In this document: positions 1,514-32,000 of the stretch, in pieces
Position numbering within the stretch: the first letter of the stretch is position 1
How the letters are laid out: each line of letters opens with the position of its first letter
Assembly: GCF_000092105.1 (NCBI RefSeq)
Contig: NC_014148.1
Location: 4,680,001 to 4,712,000, forward strand
DNA from: Planctopirus limnophila DSM 3776
Lineage (GTDB): Bacteria > Planctomycetota > Planctomycetia > Planctomycetales > Planctomycetaceae
DNA: 32,000 nucleotides
Direction: 5' to 3'
The notes under the pieces: generated by a model
Database searches by the model: none
What the model was told of the DNA's origin: nothing
The model's input: only the letters and a program-made list of their open reading frames with translations
Translations under genes and position numbers: made by a program

Positions 1514-1710
1514 CTGCTCGCCGCATATGCTTTCTAAGAGTCCAAATCGCTCCTATGTGCGATGCATGTCCCCCTCAAGAACCCTCGCCCATGTCTTCGT
1601 AGAAGAAGTCAAGGTGAAGGTCTGCCCAAACGATTTGTGTCCAAAACAAACGTTTCCGCAGGAGCACCAATTGTCTGCCACTGGCCAGAGATGAAAAGCA
1701 TCCCGCATCG

Positions 1711-1827
1711 GGTGGCAGGGATCGGATGTCTTCATCCGCCCTCTGGTCAATCGAGTTCACCAGCACGAATGCATCGACACATGCTTTCCTGCCATGGCCG
1801 GCAACGAAAACGTTTGACCCCAGCCAC
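1711..1827 (+). repeat. Short (core-only) copy of the intergenic repeat family also present at 27705-28070 and 31626-32000
   Basis: GGTGGCAGGGATCGGATGTCTTCATCCGCCCTCTGGTCAATCGAGTTCACCAGCACGAATGCATC (1711-1775) matches the core of the long copies with a few substitutions and a 1-nt deletion. After a divergent spacer it ends with ACGTTTGACCCCAGCCAC (to 1827), as the long copies do. It lies about 110 nt upstream of the sulfatase start. Confidence 0.75.
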
Positions 1828-1937
1828 TCAGAATCCAAACCTCGCCTCATGCTCGATTGCTTTATGCAATCGAATTGAGTGATGGTTATGATCAACCAGA
1901 TCATCCGAGAGAATTCTGACTGCAGGACTGGATTTTT

Positions 1938-3524: not shown

Positions 3525-3630
3525 ACGAGCCGGAAGCGTCAGCGACGGGCATTTGTATTGTCATAATATCTAGTATATTCTGCCACGAAGAAAAGTAGAG
3601 AAGCACCCGTCGCTCACGCTTCCGGCTCGT
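3525..3630. repeat. REP doublet (REPIN-like long hairpin) abutting the 3' end of the RAYT gene
   Basis: Arm CGAGCCGGAAGCGTCAGCGACGGG (3526-3549) pairs with CCCGTCGCTCACGCTTCCGGCTCG (3606-3629): 24 positions with one central C.C mismatch (3540/3615), plus A3525-T3630. The spacer (3550-3605) is 56 nt and AT-rich. It ends 2 nt before the RAYT stop codon. Confidence 0.9.
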
Positions 3631-3632
3631 GA

Positions 3633-4154
3633 TCATTGTGGCTCGCTTTGGTCGAGCCGTGTGTTGTAGACCGACATCTGCTCGCCTTGTTCGTTGATAA
3701 CGTAGGCTATGGCTGACTCCAGCGATTTCATGTCATTGAGGTATCTCGTGCTGCCGTGTTGAGTCCAGCGGTCGCGGTCCGCATCCTCTTGAAAAGCTTC
3801 CCGTAATCGACGACTCGACCACGCTCTCAGATCACTCATGACCTTTTCCGGCGATATCGGCGCGTTCAGCAGAATATGCACATGGTTGCTGCAGACGTGA
3901 ACGGCATGAAGACTCCACGAACGATGAGTGCATACCTCGCGAATAGTCTTCAGGACGACTTCACGGTGTACGTGATTGAGCTGATAAGGTGCCTGGCGTA
4001 ATGACTGGTGGCGACGAGCTTCCAGTTCTTCATCAGGAGCAACTAACGGAGTGCCAGGAAGATTGTGCTGACGATCCACCGATCCCGGATCCCGACCATG
4101 CAGCCATGTGCCATACGTCGTGAACGTGATGAAGTAAGCCAGCGGCGGATTCAA
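3633..4154 (-). CDS. REP-associated tyrosine transposase (RAYT; IS200-like Y1/HUH transposase family)
   Basis: 173 aa. TTG start at 4152-4154 with GAGGGA about 10 nt upstream; stop at 3633-3635. N-terminal YFITFTTYGTWLHG, HUH motif in SNHVHILL, and a C-terminal catalytic-Tyr-type motif AIAYVINEQ. The gene is bracketed by REP doublets at 3525-3630 and 4188-4291. Confidence 0.82.
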   Translation of the reverse strand: MNPPLAYFITFTTYGTWLHGRDPGSVDRQHNLPGTPLVAPDEELEARRHQSLRQAPYQLNHVHREVVLKTIREVCTHRSWSLHAVHVCSNHVHILLNAPISPEKVMSDLRAWSSRRLREAFQEDADRDRWTQHGSTRYLNDMKSLESAIAYVINEQGEQMSVYNTRLDQSEPQ

Positions 4155-4187
4155 GGTGCGATATCCCTCGACATACGTGTGCTAATA

Positions 4188-4291
4188 CGAGCCGGAAGCG
4201 TCAGCGACGGGCATTTCTCGACTTTTCTTCGTGACGATTCACACTAAACATCAAGACAATACAAATACCCGTCGCTCACGCTTCCGGCTCG
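4188..4291. repeat. REP doublet (REPIN-like long hairpin) 33 nt upstream of the RAYT start
   Basis: The same two 24-nt arms as at 3526-3549/3606-3629 occur at 4188-4211 and 4268-4291, with the same central C.C mismatch. Pairing extends inward (GCATTT 4211-4216 with AAATAC 4263-4268, one mismatch). The 56-nt spacer is roughly the reverse complement of the spacer in the first doublet. Confidence 0.9.
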
Positions 4292-4298
4292 TGGCGCG

Positions 4299-7557: not shown

Positions 7558-7941
7558 GTGCGTCCAAATCCTGGTTGCTGGTTTGAAATTTATGTCGATG
7601 ATCTCGACCGCGCGACGGCTTTTTATCAGACCGTCCTCGGAACAAAGCTCGATAAGCTGGCCAGCCCGGTCGACAATCTGCAGATGATGACCTTTCCCAT
7701 GTCGATGGACGGCCCGGGAGCCTCTGGGGCTTTATGCAAAATGGAAGGGATGTCAGCCGGGGGAAACAGCACAATGATCTACTTCAGTTGCGAAGACTGC
7801 GCTGTCGAAGCCGGTCGCATTGAAGCCGCCGGTGGCAAGCTGATGATGCCCAAAACATCCATCGGCATGTACGGCTTTATCGCCACAGGGATCGATACCG
7901 AAGGGAACGCCTTCGGTCTGCATACCGCCCCCTCGTTCTAA
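7558..7941 (+). CDS. VOC-family (glyoxalase/bleomycin-resistance fold) protein
   Basis: 127 aa; GTG start with a strong SD; TAA 7939-7941. WFEIYVDDLDRATAFYQTVLG, and later GFIATGIDTEGNAFGLH, are typical of small VOC/glyoxalase-fold proteins. Confidence 0.8.
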   Translation: MRPNPGCWFEIYVDDLDRATAFYQTVLGTKLDKLASPVDNLQMMTFPMSMDGPGASGALCKMEGMSAGGNSTMIYFSCEDCAVEAGRIEAAGGKLMMPKTSIGMYGFIATGIDTEGNAFGLHTAPSF

Positions 7942-7945
7942 TCAA

Positions 7946-8083
7946 CAACTCGACTGATACGGATTCCAATAATCAACTGCATTCCCTGGTATGGAGTGGC
8001 TGGGGTTGAGCCTCTTCGCGAACCCCCAGATCGTGCCGAAAATCGCTGGGGGTTCGAAGACTCAACCCCAGCCACCCGCCGCT
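7946..8083. mobile_element. MITE-like insertion carrying an 80-nt imperfect hairpin, flanked by a direct duplication of the VOC gene 3' end
   Basis: CCCTCGTTCTAATCAA occurs at 7930-7945 (it includes the VOC stop codon) and again at 8084-8099. With one mismatch the repeat extends to 21 nt (7925-7945 / 8079-8099). Between the copies, GTGGCTGGGGTTGAG..AACCCCCA (7996-8028) pairs with TGGGGGTT..CTCAACCCCAGCCAC (8047-8075). Confidence 0.6.
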
Positions 8084-8215
8084 CCCTCGTTCTAATCAAA
8101 CTGAATTCCTCAGCATGACAAGAGGCCGGTGGTATGGGAATTTACCCATCGGCTGTCATAACGTGACCTGTGGCCACTCTCGTATTAGCCTCGTTCTGGA
8201 AAGTTCCTGCATAAC

Positions 8216-21501: not shown

Positions 21502-21639
21502 TTTGGTGGGTGGTTGTGGGTGGATGGTTGGGATTTGCTGTTGGCTGTTGGGTATTGGGTGTTTGTCACTGATCCAGTAGGTGGCACCCCAAAGGGTGGC
21601 ACGTCCCTGAGGTCCGCCGAAGGGCGTGGTCTTCATCCG
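21502..21639 (+). repeat. G/T-rich degenerate heptad tract followed by a left-module copy of the intergenic repeat family
   Basis: 21502-21565 is GT-rich with TTGGGTG-like units (for example TTGGGTATTGGGTG), the complement of the CACCCAA repeat at 23963-24039. 21580-21639 holds GGTGGCACCCCAAAGGGTGGCACGTCCCTGAGGTCCGCCGAAGGGCGTGGTCTTCATCCG. This matches GGTGGCACGACCCTGGAGG...AAGGGCGTGGTCTTTAC of the long copies. Confidence 0.65.
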
Positions 21640-23826: not shown

Positions 23827-23896
23827 GGCACACCCTGAGGTCTTCCCCAAGGCGTGGTCTTCTTTTAACTTTCCGCCATCCCAACCGCCCAGCCAC
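23827..23896 (+). repeat. Left-module fragment of the intergenic repeat family
   Basis: GGCACACCCTGAGG (23827-23840) and AAGGCGTGGTCTTC (23849-23862) match the GGCACG.CCCTG.AGG / AAGGGCGTGGTCTT pair seen at 21598-21634, 27726-27764 and 31631-31683. CCCAGCCAC follows at 23888-23896. Confidence 0.6.
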
Positions 23897-26311: not shown

Positions 26312-27700
26312 ATGCTGCATTTCGCGTGGCAAAATCTGGCCAGTCGTCCGGCTCGTTCAATTCTCGCTCTCCTGGGCCTGACCGTCGCCATCACGGGGAT
26401 GGTGGGCCTTTTCTCGATTGCTGTCGGCCTGCAACGAACTGTCGGCAGAACCTTTGATCGCATCCCGGGCTTGGCAGCCATGCAACCCGGCGCACCCATC
26501 CCCTTGTTTTCCCGCATGCCCGCCGCCTGGGCCGAAGAAATCCGCGAAGTTCCCGGCGTGAGTGTCGTCAGGCCCGAACTCTGGACCAGAGCCCAGATGG
26601 TCGATGGCAAAATGACCTTCAACCCGCCACGCTTCCTATTCGGAACCGATATCCCCACCACTCTCCAGATGAAGTCGGCCGTCTATCGCGACGACATTCA
26701 AGCCGGGCGCTTCCTGGAACTTGCCGACGTCGGCACCAACCGCTGCGTCATCAGCGAAGCCATTGCCCGCGATTCCAGCAAAAAACCAGGTGATATCATC
26801 AAAGTCGATGGCAACCTGTTGGAAGTTATTGGCGTCTACAAAACAGGTTCCATCCTGCTCGATGTGGCCATCGTCATTGATCAATCCACTCTGCGACAAC
26901 TCTACCGCATGGATCCTTCGATCATCTCTTCGGTCTATATCGAACCGGTGGAAAAGATGAATCCTGACGAACTCTCCAAGGCTATTCGCGAGAAATTCCG
27001 TGGACGTTCCCTCGGCAAATGGCAACCGTCGGCTGATACCATCGCCGGCCTTTCTGGTCGAACAGAAGCGACACTCGCCGACAAGTTCGTCGCTGGCTTA
27101 TCGGGGCTGTCAGATCTCGGAAAACCACGCAAACCAGCGCCGGCCAACTCGTCGACTTCTGGCGAAGTCCTTCTCGCAGGAGGTGAAAAGCCCAGCCCCG
27201 AAGACATCTCCGGCGAAAACTCTGCAGCCGACACCAGCGATGCCGAAGAAGGTCTCGAAGTTCGTTCCGCCCGTGACTGGGGCACCAAAATTCAGGAGTT
27301 CAGCTCCGACCTGGATATCTTCATGTACCTCATGAGTGGCATCGGGGTCGTGATTGCCCTGCTCAGCATTCTCAACACCATGCTCATGAGTGTCACCGAA
27401 CGGATGACCGAGTTCGGCATTCTGAAAGCCAATGGCTGGTCATCGTGGGATCTTCTGCGGCTCATCGCTTACGAATCAGCGGCTCTCGGGCTGATTGGCG
27501 GGATTCTCGGCTGCACACTGGGCTGGATTGGCACACTCGTCGTCAATGCGTCCATTCCCGATAAACTCAACCTTTATGCAAGTCCCGGCCTGCTCCTCTT
27601 CAGCCTCGCTTTCAGTATGGCACTGGGTGTGCTCGGCGGACTTTACCCCGCCCTGTGGGCCACCAGACTCACACCCATGGAAGCGATCCGCCGCTCATAA
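26312..27700 (+). CDS. ABC transporter permease, FtsX/MacB-LolE type
   Basis: The likely start is ATG 26312 (MLHFAWQNLASRPARSILALLGLTVAITGMVG, the typical MacB/FtsX N-terminus); the track starts at 26198. A periplasmic domain is followed by the C-terminal FtsX segment LNTMLMSVTERMTEFGILKANGWSSWDLLRLIAYESAALGLIGGILG. TAA 27698-27700. Confidence 0.88.
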   Translation: MLHFAWQNLASRPARSILALLGLTVAITGMVGLFSIAVGLQRTVGRTFDRIPGLAAMQPGAPIPLFSRMPAAWAEEIREVPGVSVVRPELWTRAQMVDGKMTFNPPRFLFGTDIPTTLQMKSAVYRDDIQAGRFLELADVGTNRCVISEAIARDSSKKPGDIIKVDGNLLEVIGVYKTGSILLDVAIVIDQSTLRQLYRMDPSIISSVYIEPVEKMNPDELSKAIREKFRGRSLGKWQPSADTIAGLSGRTEATLADKFVAGLSGLSDLGKPRKPAPANSSTSGEVLLAGGEKPSPEDISGENSAADTSDAEEGLEVRSARDWGTKIQEFSSDLDIFMYLMSGIGVVIALLSILNTMLMSVTERMTEFGILKANGWSSWDLLRLIAYESAALGLIGGILGCTLGWIGTLVVNASIPDKLNLYASPGLLLFSLAFSMALGVLGGLYPALWATRLTPMEAIRRS

Positions 27701-27704
27701 AACC

Positions 27705-28070
27705 GTTGGGTGGCCCGACGTTGGGTGGCACGACCCTGGAGGCTTTGCGGAAGGGCGTGGTCTTTACGCCTTTTCTGAGTGAGAGTTTATGCATTGCCGG
27801 TGTGGCAGGGGTCGGATGTCTTCATCCGCCCCCTGGTCAAATCGAGTTCACCAGCACAAATGCATCTGTAGCGTTCTTCAGAACTCCGCAACATCGCCAT
27901 CAACAACCAACATCAAACGACCTGGGGGCAAACGAGGACGTTTGACCCCAGCCACACAGTCTCCAGCGACCCCTGTACTCAGCACGCCGGCAAAGTTGTG
28001 TGTAATAGACAGCAGCTCTGGGCAAGCATGCCTTCGCAACCAGCACAACGCTGTTACTTCCTGGGAAACG
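27705..28070 (+). repeat. Long copy of the intergenic repeat family (left module + core + tail)
   Basis: It shares long identical runs with 31626-32000: TTGGGTGGCACGACCCTGGAG, AAGGGCGTGGTCTTTAC, CCTTTTCTGAGTGAGAGTTTATGCATTGCC, GTGGCAGGGGTCGGATGTCTTCATCCGCCCCCT, CAAATCGAGTTCACCAGCAC and AATGCATCTGTAGCGTTCTTCAGAACTCC. It contains hairpins at 27806-27835 and 27922-27951. It starts 5 nt after the permease stop. Confidence 0.85.
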
Positions 28071-28106
28071 TATCATTTCCCTCAGCCTGAAAGAAATCAT
28101 CATCAC

Positions 28107-28148
28107 CAACAAAATCGCCCGCCTGATGTGAATCATCAGGCGGGCGAT
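28107..28148 (-). terminator. Rho-independent terminator for the Cys-rich protein gene
   Basis: A perfect 15-bp GC-rich stem, ATCGCCCGCCTGATG (28114-28128) with CATCAGGCGGGCGAT (28134-28148), has a 5-nt loop. On the minus strand it is followed by TTTTGTTG. It lies 134 nt downstream of the stop at 28282. Confidence 0.7.
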
Positions 28149-28203
28149 CTGTTTCAAGCTCAATTCAAACGGGTGCTCTAATGACCATACTCACTCAGAG
28201 TGC

Positions 28204-28229
28204 CATGCTTGCGGCTCTGGGCAAGCATG
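28204..28229. repeat. Repeated hairpin CATGCTTGC-N8-GCAAGCATG (copy 1)
   Basis: A 9-bp perfect stem with loop GGCTCTGG, followed on the plus strand by TTTT. The 29-nt string GTGCCATGCTTGC(G/A)GCTCTGGGCAAGCATG recurs at 31487-31515. Its 3' half recurs at 28012-28032. Confidence 0.7.
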
Positions 28230-28281
28230 TTTTGGCCATTGAACCCACCATTTAACGTCTCACTCGAGCATTACATCGGGC

Positions 28282-28782
28282 TTAGTCGTGATAGGTCACG
28301 GTAATCCCACGACGTGATGACGAAGTCAGTTCAACCGAGTACTTGCCGTAGTCATAAACGACCTTGTCACCACAGCGACTCACCTTGACTTCTTCTTCGC
28401 AGGCACAAGGTGGTACGCAGATCTTCACACAGACGCACTGACAGGGATTGCAGGGATCCTTGATCGACACAATTTTGGAAACTGCACATGGTGCAATGTT
28501 CCGCTCTCTGCGGTAATTCACACACTCATAGAGCACACAGGAAGTTGTGGAAACATAAGCCGCACCCGGCGAAACCACGGTTGTGGTCATGCTGTCGTAA
28601 GCCGGATCAGCCATAGGCTGCAGAGCGGTGGGCTCCTGGCCAGGAACTGGCGGAATCTGGCCGAACGAAGGGCCACCATAGACAGCCCCAGGTTGCTTCG
28701 CTTCGACAAATCCCGAAGCAGAAATCCCCAGTGCAGTGACGACTGCCAGTGCAGCCACATTGCGGATAAAACGACCCATCAT
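28282..28782 (-). CDS. Small secreted Cys-rich hypothetical protein
   Basis: The start is taken at ATG 28782 (AGGAG 4 nt upstream); the track ORF starts at 28830. Signal peptide MMGRFIRNVAALAVVTALGISASGFVEA. The C-terminal half holds the Cys cluster CVLYECV...PCAV...PCNPCQCVCVKICVPPCACEE...RCG. Confidence 0.65.
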   Translation of the reverse strand: MMGRFIRNVAALAVVTALGISASGFVEAKQPGAVYGGPSFGQIPPVPGQEPTALQPMADPAYDSMTTTVVSPGAAYVSTTSCVLYECVNYRRERNIAPCAVSKIVSIKDPCNPCQCVCVKICVPPCACEEEVKVSRCGDKVVYDYGKYSVELTSSSRRGITVTYHD

Positions 28783-29150
28783 TTCACTCCTTCTCCCAGT
28801 GATGTCCCTGATACGCTTTGAGTGAGGCAAGAGAACAGGTTCCAGCCCTCATCAGGCCTTTCCACACGAAAGGCTCGCTCAGTCGAACACCAGCAAGGCC
28901 CGTTGCTGACATTTCTCAATCTATCGGCGACACACCCTCGATTGATGGCAAAAATTGCCGAATGTCGCTTCGACACCTCCATGATACATGGACTTAGGGA
29001 TAATGGGTAAAATTTTCCGCCGCAAGCGTCAGCAACCTGCGAGATCCCAGATCGTGAAAATGGATAATTGCGATAGATACATGGATCCGGGGTTTTGGCT
29101 GATCCAGGGGGTTCTGCGGCATCCTTGCGCGTTCAAAGAATCTCGATTGC

Positions 29151-29486
29151 TCATGACAGTTCGTTCGTCCCCGGGTCGTTTGTGAACCTCTTCTTCTCAG
29201 GTTCTTCATCAAAATCAACGAAGATCTCCCGATCTTCACCAGTAGATCTCCGAGTGCCTGGCGATATCAATCGATCTTTCACTTGAGCACTGACTGAAAG
29301 TCCAGTATGACAATGAGCACGATGATTTGTGAAATGGACTGTCACTGCGCCCGATGGCAGGCCTCCACGAATCATTTCAGGTTTGAGACAAACTGATCCT
29401 GAATTGAACGGATCACTGGATTGAATCAGGATTCCAGCGGCTCGCCAGACCGCAGACCTGTATTTTGACCTGAGCATGACCACCAC
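29151..29486 (-). CDS. Hypothetical protein (weak call; possible shorter form from ATG 29375)
   Basis: This is the only sizeable ORF in the 690-nt gap between 28830 and 29524. Codon usage looks plausible and the C-terminus is acidic (EDREIFVDFDEEPEKK). I found no recognisable motif and no convincing SD. Confidence 0.25.
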   Translation of the reverse strand: MVVMLRSKYRSAVWRAAGILIQSSDPFNSGSVCLKPEMIRGGLPSGAVTVHFTNHRAHCHTGLSVSAQVKDRLISPGTRRSTGEDREIFVDFDEEPEKKRFTNDPGTNELS

Positions 29487-29523
29487 AGAAAACCACCGAT
29501 GATCGGATAGAAGCGGGCGCTCG

Positions 29524-31437
29524 ATGTTGCCGGATCGCCAAGCGTACTTGAATCAGCGTCGCCTCACTCGCATTGTCTCGGGGCTTTGCCTGCTCTTTGC
29601 CTGCCTGATCTGGATCCTCACAACCAGCCCGACACCTGTCGTACTCGCACAAATCACTCCGGAAACGAGTGTTGACACCACCTCGGCAGCCCTCGCCGAC
29701 CGCCCCAACATCATCGTCATCATGGTCGATGACCTCGGCTGGCGAGACACTTCCATCTACGGCAGCAAGTCGTCCCGCACTCCTCACATCGATGCCCTCG
29801 CCGCTCGCGGCGTCATCTTCACTCAAGCCTACTCGAGCAGTTCGCTCGATGAACCCAGCCGGGCCAGCCTCCTCACTGGAAAATGGCCCGCACGTCTGAA
29901 GCTGACTCAATCGCGGGAACTCAACCCGGGCGAAATTCTCGAACCCTCTTTGCCACAAACCGCCCTTTCCCATATCTCGATGATCACCCCGACATCACGC
30001 ACTCAACTCCCTGGCGATGAACTCACTGCAGCAGAAATTCTCCAAAACGCAGGCTATGCCACCGCTTTCATGGGCGAATGGAACCTGGGCGAAAACGCTT
30101 CTCAGCCAGAAAATCAGGGCTTCTCTCACGTTGTCTGCAGTTCGCCGCTTACCAGTCAGCCGCAGTTCGCCGGTCAACATGCTGATGATCTGCTGACACA
30201 ACAGGCCATCAACTGGATGGAAACCAATTCAAAGGAACCGTTCTTTCTGAATCTGTGGTATCAATCAGTCGGTGCACCTTTTCAAGCTCCATCTGGGGAT
30301 ATACAGCAGGCACGCACATTGGCAGACCCCTCTCAAGATCCACAGCAGGCCCCGGTCATGGCCGCCATGATCGCGGCACTCGACCAGCGCGTCGGCCTCA
30401 TTGTCGCCGCACTGGAGCGACTCCAGCTCACGCAGCGCACCATCATCGTTTTCACCTCCGATAACGGTGGCAACATGACCGACACGATCGAAGGCGACCT
30501 CCTCACCAGCAATCGACCGCTCCGTGGTGGCAAAGGCTCGATGTATGAAGGGGGCAGTCGGGTCCCTCTCATCGTCGTCTGGCCTGGCGTCGCCACTCCT
30601 GCTCGCAGCTGCGACGACGCCGTCAGTGCTGTGGATCTCCTCCCGACCCTGGTCGATATGGCGCGCGGCACCATCCCCGCAGGTCATCAGATTGACGGCG
30701 TCAGTCTGAAACCCGCACTCACAGGGGCCACAGGTTTTGATCGAGGTGCCATCTTTCATCACTACCCGCACTACAACCCAACGACAGGAACCACACCTGC
30801 GATCTCTGTTCGCAGTGAAAACATGAAGCTCATTCGCTTCTTCGGTGGTCATGTCACCCAGACAGACCGCATTGAAGTCTACGACCTGCAGAATGATCCC
30901 GGCGAGCGCATCAACCTCGCACGTTCACGCCGGGATGAAATCGTACGCCTGACGAACCTCATCCAGAACTTTCTCATAGAAACCCGCGCATTGGTTCCAC
31001 AGAAAAATCCGAACTTTGAAAGACCGCAACAAGGCTGGGCGACTGGTGCCGATGCCGAAGTCGAAGATGGCGAGCTAGTCCTCAAACGTTCCGGAGATCG
31101 ACCCATTCTCTTTGAAACCTACGATGTACCGCATGTGAATCGGCAACTGCGCCTTCGCCTGCCACTCAAGACCTCGTCCCGCATGGAAGGGCGTGTCATG
31201 TGGTCAACTGCCAGCGAGCCAAGCTTTACGCAAAACCGGCAGGCCAAATTTGCAGCCACACAGACAGGTGAATGGGAAACTCACGAGATCACCTTGCCAG
31301 TTCAAGACCTGCTCACCGGGATCCGCATCGAGTTCGGTCGAGGAAATAGCGACCTCTCTCTCGGCTGGATCCGGGCCGAACTGATCGATGGCAACCTCGT
31401 TAAAGAATGGCAATTCGGCGAAGTCGAATCTGAGTAA
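29524..31437 (+). CDS. Sulfatase-family protein with a degenerate active site (pseudo-sulfatase) and an extra C-terminal beta-rich domain
   Basis: 637 aa with a signal/anchor (IVSGLCLLFACLIWILTT). The sulfatase fold is clear (IIVIMVDDLGWRD, FTSDNGGN, GGKGSMYEGGSRVPLIVVWPG). However, the FGly position is Asp (SSLDEPSRASLLTG; GAT at 29848-29850). GKWHLG is replaced by GEWNLG (30076-30084). The HxP His is Gly (SVGAPF). About 130 extra C-terminal residues follow. Confidence 0.85.
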   Translation: MLPDRQAYLNQRRLTRIVSGLCLLFACLIWILTTSPTPVVLAQITPETSVDTTSAALADRPNIIVIMVDDLGWRDTSIYGSKSSRTPHIDALAARGVIFTQAYSSSSLDEPSRASLLTGKWPARLKLTQSRELNPGEILEPSLPQTALSHISMITPTSRTQLPGDELTAAEILQNAGYATAFMGEWNLGENASQPENQGFSHVVCSSPLTSQPQFAGQHADDLLTQQAINWMETNSKEPFFLNLWYQSVGAPFQAPSGDIQQARTLADPSQDPQQAPVMAAMIAALDQRVGLIVAALERLQLTQRTIIVFTSDNGGNMTDTIEGDLLTSNRPLRGGKGSMYEGGSRVPLIVVWPGVATPARSCDDAVSAVDLLPTLVDMARGTIPAGHQIDGVSLKPALTGATGFDRGAIFHHYPHYNPTTGTTPAISVRSENMKLIRFFGGHVTQTDRIEVYDLQNDPGERINLARSRRDEIVRLTNLIQNFLIETRALVPQKNPNFERPQQGWATGADAEVEDGELVLKRSGDRPILFETYDVPHVNRQLRLRLPLKTSSRMEGRVMWSTASEPSFTQNRQAKFAATQTGEWETHEITLPVQDLLTGIRIEFGRGNSDLSLGWIRAELIDGNLVKEWQFGEVESE

Positions 31438-31489
31438 TCATCGCATTCCACGCCACCACACTTCATTCTGCCATCGGGTACTTGTGTGC

Positions 31490-31556
31490 CATGCTTGCAG
31501 CTCTGGGCAAGCATGCCTCCAAGGATGACGGGTAGCCCGGCCAACTCGTGGCCGGG
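31490..31556 (+). terminator. Two tandem hairpins downstream of the sulfatase-like gene (probable terminator region; the first is copy 2 of the CATGCTTGC hairpin)
   Basis: CATGCTTGC (31490-31498) pairs with GCAAGCATG (31507-31515), loop AGCTCTGG. CCCGGCCA (31536-31543) pairs with TGGCCGGG (31549-31556), loop ACTCG. Neither hairpin is followed by a U-tract. Confidence 0.4.
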
Positions 31557-31625
31557 TCATCGTACTTAGTGCGATGACAAGAAGCCGCGCCATGCGCGTG
31601 TCACGCCATCACTCTTGTCTCGCCC

Positions 31626-32000
31626 TTGGGTGGCACGACCCTGGAGCCACAAAAATCAAAACTGTGCGAAAGGGCGTGGTCTTTACCCCTTTTCTGAGTG
31701 AGAGTTTATGCATTGCCAGGGTGGCAGGGGTCGGATGTCTTCATCCGCCCCCTCTTCAAATCGAGTTCACCAGCACCAATGCATCTGTAGCGTTCTTCAG
31801 AACTCCCCAACATCGCCATAAACAACCAGCGTCAAGAAACCTGGGGGCAAACGAAGACGTTTGACCCCAGCCACCCAGCCTCCAGCCACATACCAAAAAG
31901 CACACAATCAACGTTGTGTGTCATAAACAGTAGCTCCAAGCAAGTATGCTGATCAACCCTCAACACGCCATTGATTTCTGGTATGCGTTTTAGAGATGCT
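31626..32000 (+). repeat. Long copy of the intergenic repeat family, running to the window edge
   Basis: It is collinear with 27721-28070 (see that feature). The only large differences are a longer spacer between the two left-module boxes (31647-31669) and scattered substitutions. Similarity continues at least to about 31988, so the element may extend beyond the window. Confidence 0.85.

Follow-up and report, generated by a model that had tools for sequence, protein, structure and literature searches.

What kind of element is the non-coding repeat that stands downstream of two unrelated genes, once behind a MacB/FtsX-type permease gene (copy 1) and once behind a sulfatase gene (copy 2), in the 32,000-nt stretch of DNA analysed here (hereafter the window; C1:4680001-4712000 of genome G000, which comprises 5.46 Mb on two replicons)? 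The original prediction described a repeat of at least 350 nt that is present twice downstream of unrelated genes, and named a non-autonomous mobile element, a structured RNA gene family and a 3' UTR/terminator cassette as candidates, with a decaying segmental duplication as the fallback. Both copies are real: an ungapped block of 228 nt (27743-27970 versus 31662-31889) is 92% identical, and the gapped alignment (27721-28031 versus 31626-31949) is 83% identical over 327 nt. Judging from the spans of these matches, the common stretch is therefore approximately 310-325 nt, which is shorter than claimed and ends before position 32000. The two stems quoted in the prediction lie exactly where they were placed (hairpins 1 and 2 of copy 1 in Table 1), the difference between the copies in one loop (AGGA/AAGA) was read correctly, and the neighbouring genes are those for the permease and the sulfatase.

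BLAST of the repeat against the genome yielded 239 HSPs, which make up a mosaic of modules, and an iterated nhmmer search with the central module (hereafter the core) recovered 103 loci, 67 of them near full length (33 on the plus and 34 on the minus strand) and none on the small replicon. The genome-wide copy-number check proposed originally thus shows that "present twice" was too low a count, and the window alone contains a third core copy. We consider it very likely that the window copies belong to a genus-specific, REPIN-like family of ~100 members of the REP/RAYT type, and are not a new RNA gene. The core is ~158-165 nt long (158 nt in both window copies), and its consensus has sharp edges, extending from GGGTGGCAGGGG to CCCCAGCCAC. 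Across the 67 copies, the variability per column is 5-6% at the two core ends and 27% in the interior. Every core matches its own reverse complement at approximately half the score, so that the core can be regarded as a long imperfect palindrome.

According to gene positions from a rough, custom codon-usage gene caller, all of the 67 near-full-length cores are intergenic, 33 being located in convergent, 30 in tandem and 4 in divergent gaps; the background of gaps longer than 150 nt (n = 1883) comprises 304 convergent, 1039 tandem and 540 divergent ones. Within the tandem gaps, 17 cores are oriented with the upstream gene and 13 against it. Taken together, the gap types and the orientations indicate that the cores avoid promoter regions and do so without polarity. 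GC skew placed the origin near 5.14 Mb (minimum) and the terminus near 2.08 Mb, and no replichore-relative orientation bias was found among the core copies. The family is unevenly spread over the chromosome, with no copy at 1.6-2.6 Mb around the GC-skew maximum and 41 of the 103 loci at 4.2-5.0 Mb; local hopping, gene dosage near the origin and the age of the terminus region are candidate causes.

In the core, one imperfect hairpin occurs twice in inverted orientation, with a semi-conserved, partly palindromic spacer of ~86 nt in between. The hairpin has GGGTGGC as its lead-in and a lower stem of 5 bp (WGGGG/CCCCW), then a T·C mismatch that is conserved and, above it, an upper stem that is variable. 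When read on the minus strand, hairpin 2 (CTGGGGTCAAACG-TCCT-CGTTTGCCCCCAG) is built like hairpin 1 (CAGGGGTCGGATG-TCTT-CATCCGCCCCCTG), and G(G/T)GTGGC stands ahead of both. In more than 90% of the copies, GGGTGGC is found before hairpin 1 and its complement after hairpin 2. The covariation check on the stems came out in favour of both local hairpins, which are supported by both-sided compensatory changes among the 67 copies, namely at pairs 12-39 (A-T to T-A, 17), 20-31 (8) and 13-38 (4). Of the 67 copies, 62 retain the T·C at pair 17-34, and 62 likewise retain G·A, its other-strand equivalent, at 132-149. The intermediates in hairpin 1 were scarce alike (G·U, 12; A·C, 13), and because the two are equally rare, neither strand is favoured. 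The core of copy 1 folds with z = -6.5 as RNA (-72 kcal/mol) and z = -4.2 as DNA. A long-range pairing of the core ends with each other was rejected: it found no independent support (at pair 12-154, 46 copies have A·A), and Watson-Crick pairs between the ends are uninformative because they arise automatically from the symmetry of an inverted doublet.

The consensus of the tag upstream of the hairpin is GGCCGGGTGGC or GACTGGGTGGC, which is neither GTAG nor CGTC; as some of the copies that flank RAYT genes read GTAGGGTGG, GGGTGGC may represent a GTAG tag in extended or degenerate form. The heptamer is enriched between genes (421 of 1387 occurrences versus 17.7% of the genome being intergenic). 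It leads five classes of intergenic hairpins, including both core hairpins and module A (type GGGTGGC-ACGACCCT, with 18 intergenic copies), and module A is found 5' of 29 of the 67 cores. Units of the form GTGGC-W-GGGGT number ~550 in G000 and form two classes of doublets, one of ~80 nt (40 pairs, 29 of exactly 80 nt) and the other of ~165 nt (39 pairs). Two hairpin-lead "pairs" of 490 nt were discarded as chance matches in unrelated sequence.

Table 1. Features of the repeat family and related palindromes in the window (positions count from the first nucleotide of the window; TIR and modules A, C and D as in the text).
Feature	Position	Strand	Remark
Third core copy	1710-1835	+	internal deletion removes left arm of hairpin 2; without module A or TIR
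Short doublet of the 80-nt class, sister class GGGTGGC-TGGGGTTGAG	7996-8078	+	class that brackets the RAYT gene R6
Truncated lead-in of another GGGTGGC-led hairpin (GGGTGGCCCG)	27708-27717	+	complete hairpin here in G002; left edge of the G000/G002 difference
Module A, copy 1: GGGTGGC-led hairpin (CACGACCCT ... AGGGCGTG)	27723-27766	+	own REP type
Core, copy 1 (REPIN-like doublet)	27800-27957	+	matches own reverse complement, 78 bits
Core, copy 1: lead-in GTGTGGC	27800-27806		
Core, copy 1: hairpin 1	27806-27835		
Core, copy 1: spacer	27836-27921		
Core, copy 1: hairpin 2	27922-27951		
Core, copy 1: inverted lead-in GCCACAC	27951-27957		
Right terminal inverted repeat (TIR) of the ~290-nt composite, copy 1 (GTTGTGTGTAATAGACA)	27995-28011	+	33 genome copies, 26 of them at most 120 nt from a core
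Split C hairpin, loop and right arm (GCAGCTCTGGGCAAGCATGC)	28012-28031	+	target side, common to G002
Complete C hairpin (CATGCTTGC-GGCTCTGG-GCAAGCATG)	28200-28229	+	separate palindrome family of 137 copies
Complete C hairpin, upstream of copy 2	31486-31515	+	
Module D (GGGTAGCCCGGCCAACTCGTGGCCGGG hairpin and tail)	31528-31602	+	first part of the 372-nt segment that G002 lacks
Module A, copy 2	31628-31682	+	
Core, copy 2	31719-31876	+	
Core, copy 2: hairpin 1	31725-31754		
Core, copy 2: hairpin 2	31841-31870		
Right TIR of copy 2 (GTTGTGTGTCATAAACA), then decayed C half	31913-31949	+	

The cores are embedded in BIME-like mosaics that also contain other small palindromes. Copies 1 and 2 each represent the "A + core + right TIR" form of a composite of ~290 nt, which is lodged in the loop of a C hairpin, and the spacings within the two are near-identical (83/82 and 30/29 nt). 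The motif G(T/A)TGTGTGTNATAGACA, counted in Table 1 as the right TIR, faces outward on both sides of some cores, with the loop and arm of a C hairpin after it. Among the 67 cores, 27 are bare, 14 have the form A + core, 9 core + right TIR, 5 the form of the window copies, 3 left TIR + A + core and 2 left TIR + core + right TIR, while 7 represent the complete form (left TIR + A + core + right TIR). The C family (consensus CATGCTTGC-RGCTCTGG-GCAAGCATG) is the preferred landing site of the composite. At the left junction of copy 1, G002 reads GGGTGGCCCG-GCCAACTCGTGGCCGG... and G000 reads GGGTGGCCCG-ACGTTGGGTGGCACG.... Elsewhere in the window, solitary module-A-type hairpins (GGGTGGCACGTCCCTGAGG...GGGCGTGGTC) occur without a core at 21594-21631 and 23833-23881. 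The short doublet at 7996-8078 is flanked by 21-nt direct repeats, CCGC(C/T)CCCTCGTTCTAATCAA, at 7925-7945 and 8079-8099, and an additional ~50 nt separate the left repeat from the doublet.

The elements are mobile on the evidence of empty sites. The ends of the genes that flank 16 copies and the window copies are 87-98% identical in the genomes G001 and G002, and many of the sites are empty there. Filled and empty sites were compared by anchored local alignment at 11 sites with counterparts in G002. In these clean comparisons, the search for target duplications suggested in the original prediction revealed direct duplications at 6 of the 11 sites, measuring 7, 7, 18, 27, 42 (37 against G001) and 75 nt, and the remaining 5 sites are more complex replacements. 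The reverse case, insertions in G001 at sites empty in G000, was also found, and some core copies are common to G000 and G002 or G003. Within G000 alone, 8 of the 67 loci had flanking direct repeats (22-133 nt) beyond the 99th percentile of a null of mismatched loci, and the like was true of 5 of the 40 short doublets. At the locus of copy 1, window positions 27718-28011 replace 96 nt of G002 (the rest of the GGGTGGC hairpin and the left arm of the C hairpin), and at the locus of copy 2, positions 31528-31899 replace 20 nt. Relative to G002, the window loci are thus replacement or mosaic changes, not clean insertions.

Larger rearrangements were noticed at some of the same places. The gene flanks of the copies at 4500924(-) and 4681708(+, window 1710-1835) are swapped in both G001 and G002, from which we infer that ~181 kb were inverted in the G000/G003 lineage, with one breakpoint in each of the two element-bearing gaps; G003 has the arrangement of G000. 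In C51 of G001, the block between the window copies (27994-31662) appears to be inverted, such that the permease end faces the sulfatase end. A partial core is located at this permease/sulfatase junction, and the second junction is unlike a simple hairpin-to-hairpin recombination.

We surveyed the genome for transposases of the RAYT type. A six-frame search of G000 with Pfam PF01797 detected five RAYT-like genes, each with its own flanking palindromes, none of which are core hairpins. One of them, R1, is a clear RAYT (120 bits versus a cut-off of 80), and in four sister genomes, GGGTGGC-led hairpins whose stems differ flank its orthologues. Another, R5, is a RAYT-like pseudogene with an internal TAG, and one copy of the C hairpin lies 240 nt from it (C1:3286667). 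The window itself holds a RAYT-like Y1 transposase gene on the minus strand (3633-4154; Pfam Y1_Tnp, 42 bits) between 106-nt inverted repeats (3525-3630 and 4187-4292), each of which contains a ACGAGCCGGAAGCGTCAGCGACGGG hairpin with 22 genome copies; the locus 3525-4292 is a REPtron that belongs to another REP family, one that contains CGTC.

A sixth RAYT gene, R6 (C1:3383020-3383580), was found by a search with the R1 protein combined with a scan for hairpin pairs, and it matches NF047646 (REP-associated tyrosine transposase) with 85.7 bits at a cut-off of 80. R6 had been missed by both the six-frame PF01797 search and the custom gene caller, so that a RAYT census based on Pfam only undercounts in these genomes. 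R6 is bracketed by inverted GGGTGGC-TGGGGTTGAG...AACCCCCAG hairpins (lead GGGTGGC-TGGGGTTGAGTCTTCGAACCCCCAG, close CCCCCAG), that is, by the sister class TGGGGTTGAG and not by the core stems. Its orthologues in other genera share 53-61% identity, and in G016, G019, G023 and G012 they lie between GGGTGGC-TGGGG...CCCCAG hairpins, the upper stems of which differ in a compensating manner: GGGTGGCTGGGTCGGAG... in G016, GGGTGGCTGGGGTCGAGC...GCTCGCCCCCAG in G019, GGGTGGCTGGGGACGGCG... in G023 and GGGTGGCTGGGGCAGGAGCG... in G012. The bracket in G019 reads GGGTGGC-TGGGGTCGAG...CCCCCAG, with the mismatch at the same position as in the core. Downstream of the orthologue in G018 there are two GGGTGGCTGGGGC leads (the lead is also given as GGGTGGCTGGGG), and an R6-like RAYT in G020 is bracketed by module-A-type hairpins. 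Altogether, GGGTGGC leads hairpins around RAYT genes in nine genomes. In G000-G004, no RAYT gene has bracketing hairpins whose upper stems are exactly those of the core (CGGATG/CATCCG and CAAACG/CGTTTG).

Several genera contain many copies of the 13-mer GGGTGGCWGGGGT (for example 84 in G020 and 51 in G019, versus 0-3 for a reversed-pattern control), and the 165-nt core is confined to the genus, with further copies in four sister genomes. From this difference in spread, we conclude that the type of hairpin is old, and that the doublet with the long spacer is a derivative specific to the genus. Across 41 genomes, the 13-mer and RAYT genes of the R1 or R6 type co-occurred only partially, and we draw no support from this comparison: G001 has 62 copies of the 13-mer and no R6 orthologue at E<1e-25, G001 and G017 both have many copies without a close R6, and G012 and G018 have an R6-like gene and few copies. 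Of the original candidates, it is the non-autonomous mobile element that is supported, by the ~100 scattered intergenic copies, the empty orthologous sites, the target duplications and a matching RAYT system.

The other readings have to be weighed against these data. The 96-aa open reading frames found in both copies do exist, and the earlier judgement that they are not coding holds: at most 14 of the 67 copies are open in any one frame, the core lengths are not multiples of 3, no Pfam match was found, and in a coding test on the 67 cores the variability by codon phase (0.235, 0.281 and 0.286) displayed no marked excess at the third position. The elements are non-coding and act at the level of DNA, not as RNA genes, as part of an overall REPIN-like explanation in which we have high confidence. 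If they were structured RNAs instead, either small RNA genes or modules that stabilise or terminate 3' UTRs, their hairpins would be under selection as RNA. The location of the cores downstream of genes (63 of them in convergent or tandem gaps versus 4 in divergent ones) and the strong predicted RNA fold of copy 1 are in line with that idea, and an effect on mRNA stability has been proposed for REPs elsewhere (PMC3733652), which could be a secondary, exapted role. On the other hand, the cores show no orientation preference relative to the upstream gene in tandem gaps, G·U and A·C are equally rare so that no strand is favoured, and species with flanks that are 90-98% identical differ in whether a copy is there. 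Rfam contained nothing above the gathering threshold (at E<=1, only a chance match to a snoRNA with E = 0.054), and no promoter-like or T-tract terminator-like site was detected in window 27500-28400. We therefore regard an RNA family as unlikely, and the terminator cassette finds no support because a T-tract is absent after both hairpins. A decaying local segmental duplication, without any family or function, has next to no probability. Each window copy has the other as its best match (92% ungapped) at a distance of only 3.9 kb, for which reason one may have arisen from the other by local copying, but the 103 genome loci rule out this fallback as an account of the repeat, copies are found in four sister genomes as well, and the genes between the window copies are not duplicated.

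A further alternative is a classical MITE derived from a DDE-type IS, of which the mobile unit would be the composite between the GTTGTGTGTNATAGACA inverted repeats and the doublet a passive cargo. The 17-nt TIRs do face outward on both sides of 9 of the 67 cores and on one side of 17 more, and they abut a split C hairpin at its loop and arm, with a C arm following 17 of 23 right TIRs. A 12-nt direct duplication of the loop was seen in three cases (442147-442407, 4165213-4165527 and the G001 insertion in L013), and IS elements that target REPs are known (PMC1525189). Nevertheless, G000 has no gene-carrying element bearing these TIRs, 27 of the 67 cores are bare, clean insertions of the core only were observed with duplications of 7-75 nt instead of a fixed length, and the best-conserved part is the core ends, not the TIRs. 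A scan of G000 likewise revealed no gene-bearing pair of core hairpins or composite TIRs that fits an autonomous parent. We thus find a MITE quite improbable as the explanation of the family; the TIR-composite layer probably exists alongside the REP-type layer rather than in its place.

The REPIN-like reading finds its closest counterparts in described systems. REPINs were defined in PMC3116915, and PMC3733652 describes REP dimers with spacers of 20-100 bp, often conserved, between unidirectional or convergent ORFs, and reports REPs in Planctomycetes. As in the REPIN-RAYT system of Pseudomonas fluorescens SBW25 (PMC3116915, PMC3337134), the elements comprise inverted REP hairpins around a less conserved spacer and can be folded as a whole into one long hairpin, occur in tens to hundreds of copies, all extragenic, with ends far better conserved than the spacer, and include a RAYT gene bracketed by the same type of hairpin. 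Unlike in SBW25, where the invariant ends are spaced by 71 bp, the doublet here is ~165 nt long with a ~86-nt spacer. A sister-hairpin class of 80 nt exists as well, GGGTGGC serves as lead-in, variable-length target duplications occur, the hairpins flanking the RAYT gene differ from the core in the upper stem, and there are at least six RAYT paralogues instead of one.

With the REP/BIME and TnpA-REP system of E. coli (PMC3333891), the family shares an imperfect hairpin with a conserved 5' tag and a stem mismatch, mosaic clusters with other palindromes, and a Y1/HUH transposase gene between inverted REPs as in the REPtron. The differences are the 7-mer tag GGGTGGC in place of GTAG and a single T·C in place of a two-base mismatch. 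Similar to the GTAG and CGTC REP superfamilies (PMC3733652), there are stem-loops tagged at one end, dimers separated by 20-100 bp with some conserved spacers, a location between unidirectional or convergent ORFs, several REP families per genome, and clusters that include tandemly reiterated units along with variable lengths of flanking DNA; the tag here matches neither superfamily, and the genus is not among the genomes named in the text consulted. The present family is unusual in its GGGTGGC tag, in a spacer that is long and conserved, in being packaged into a composite that targets loops, and in its variable target duplications.

To our knowledge, target duplications are no described feature of IS200/IS605-type or REPIN transposition. 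They are not described for REPINs in PMC3116915 or PMC3733652. The only bacterial precedent that we found is IS1634/IS1549, with direct repeats of 8-514 bp (PMC2266710): the duplications linked to insertion range from <10 to >100 bp as they do here, but those are autonomous DDE-transposase elements of 1.5-2 kb, without a link to hairpin doublets or Y1 transposases. TnpA-REP of E. coli needs the conserved GTAG tag and the stem mismatch to bind and cut REPs, and in vitro it makes C|T cuts on both strands over >400 nt around a BIME (PMC3333891). By analogy, a RAYT of the R6 clade would recognise the single-stranded hairpin via the lead-in and the mismatch, and this recognition may drive, or may once have driven, the spread of the elements. 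Cutting by the RAYT at variable distances on both strands, followed by fill-in, could then leave variable flanking duplications; template switching of replication at the hairpins is another option. That insertion of the doublet is coupled to duplication of a variable target stretch (7 to >100 nt), with the TIR-bounded composite homing to the loop of another REP family, is a tentative proposal that we consider less likely than not.

For the annotation of this genome, the result means that ~100 intergenic structures, together with spurious open reading frames of ~96 aa, drop out as candidate genes or RNAs. It also ties the elements to a RAYT clade with a predicted recognition tag (GGGTGGC and the T·C mismatch) that is kept across genera as the upper stem drifts in a compensatory manner. 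The pairs of empty and filled sites with duplications of 7-75 nt offer a concrete, testable footprint for REPIN insertion. If the coupling of insertion to duplication is true, these would be the first reported footprints of REPIN-type insertion, left by a mechanism unlike the "peel and paste" of IS200/IS605. As the elements are located at rearrangement breakpoints between sister species, they matter for the genome plasticity of this group.
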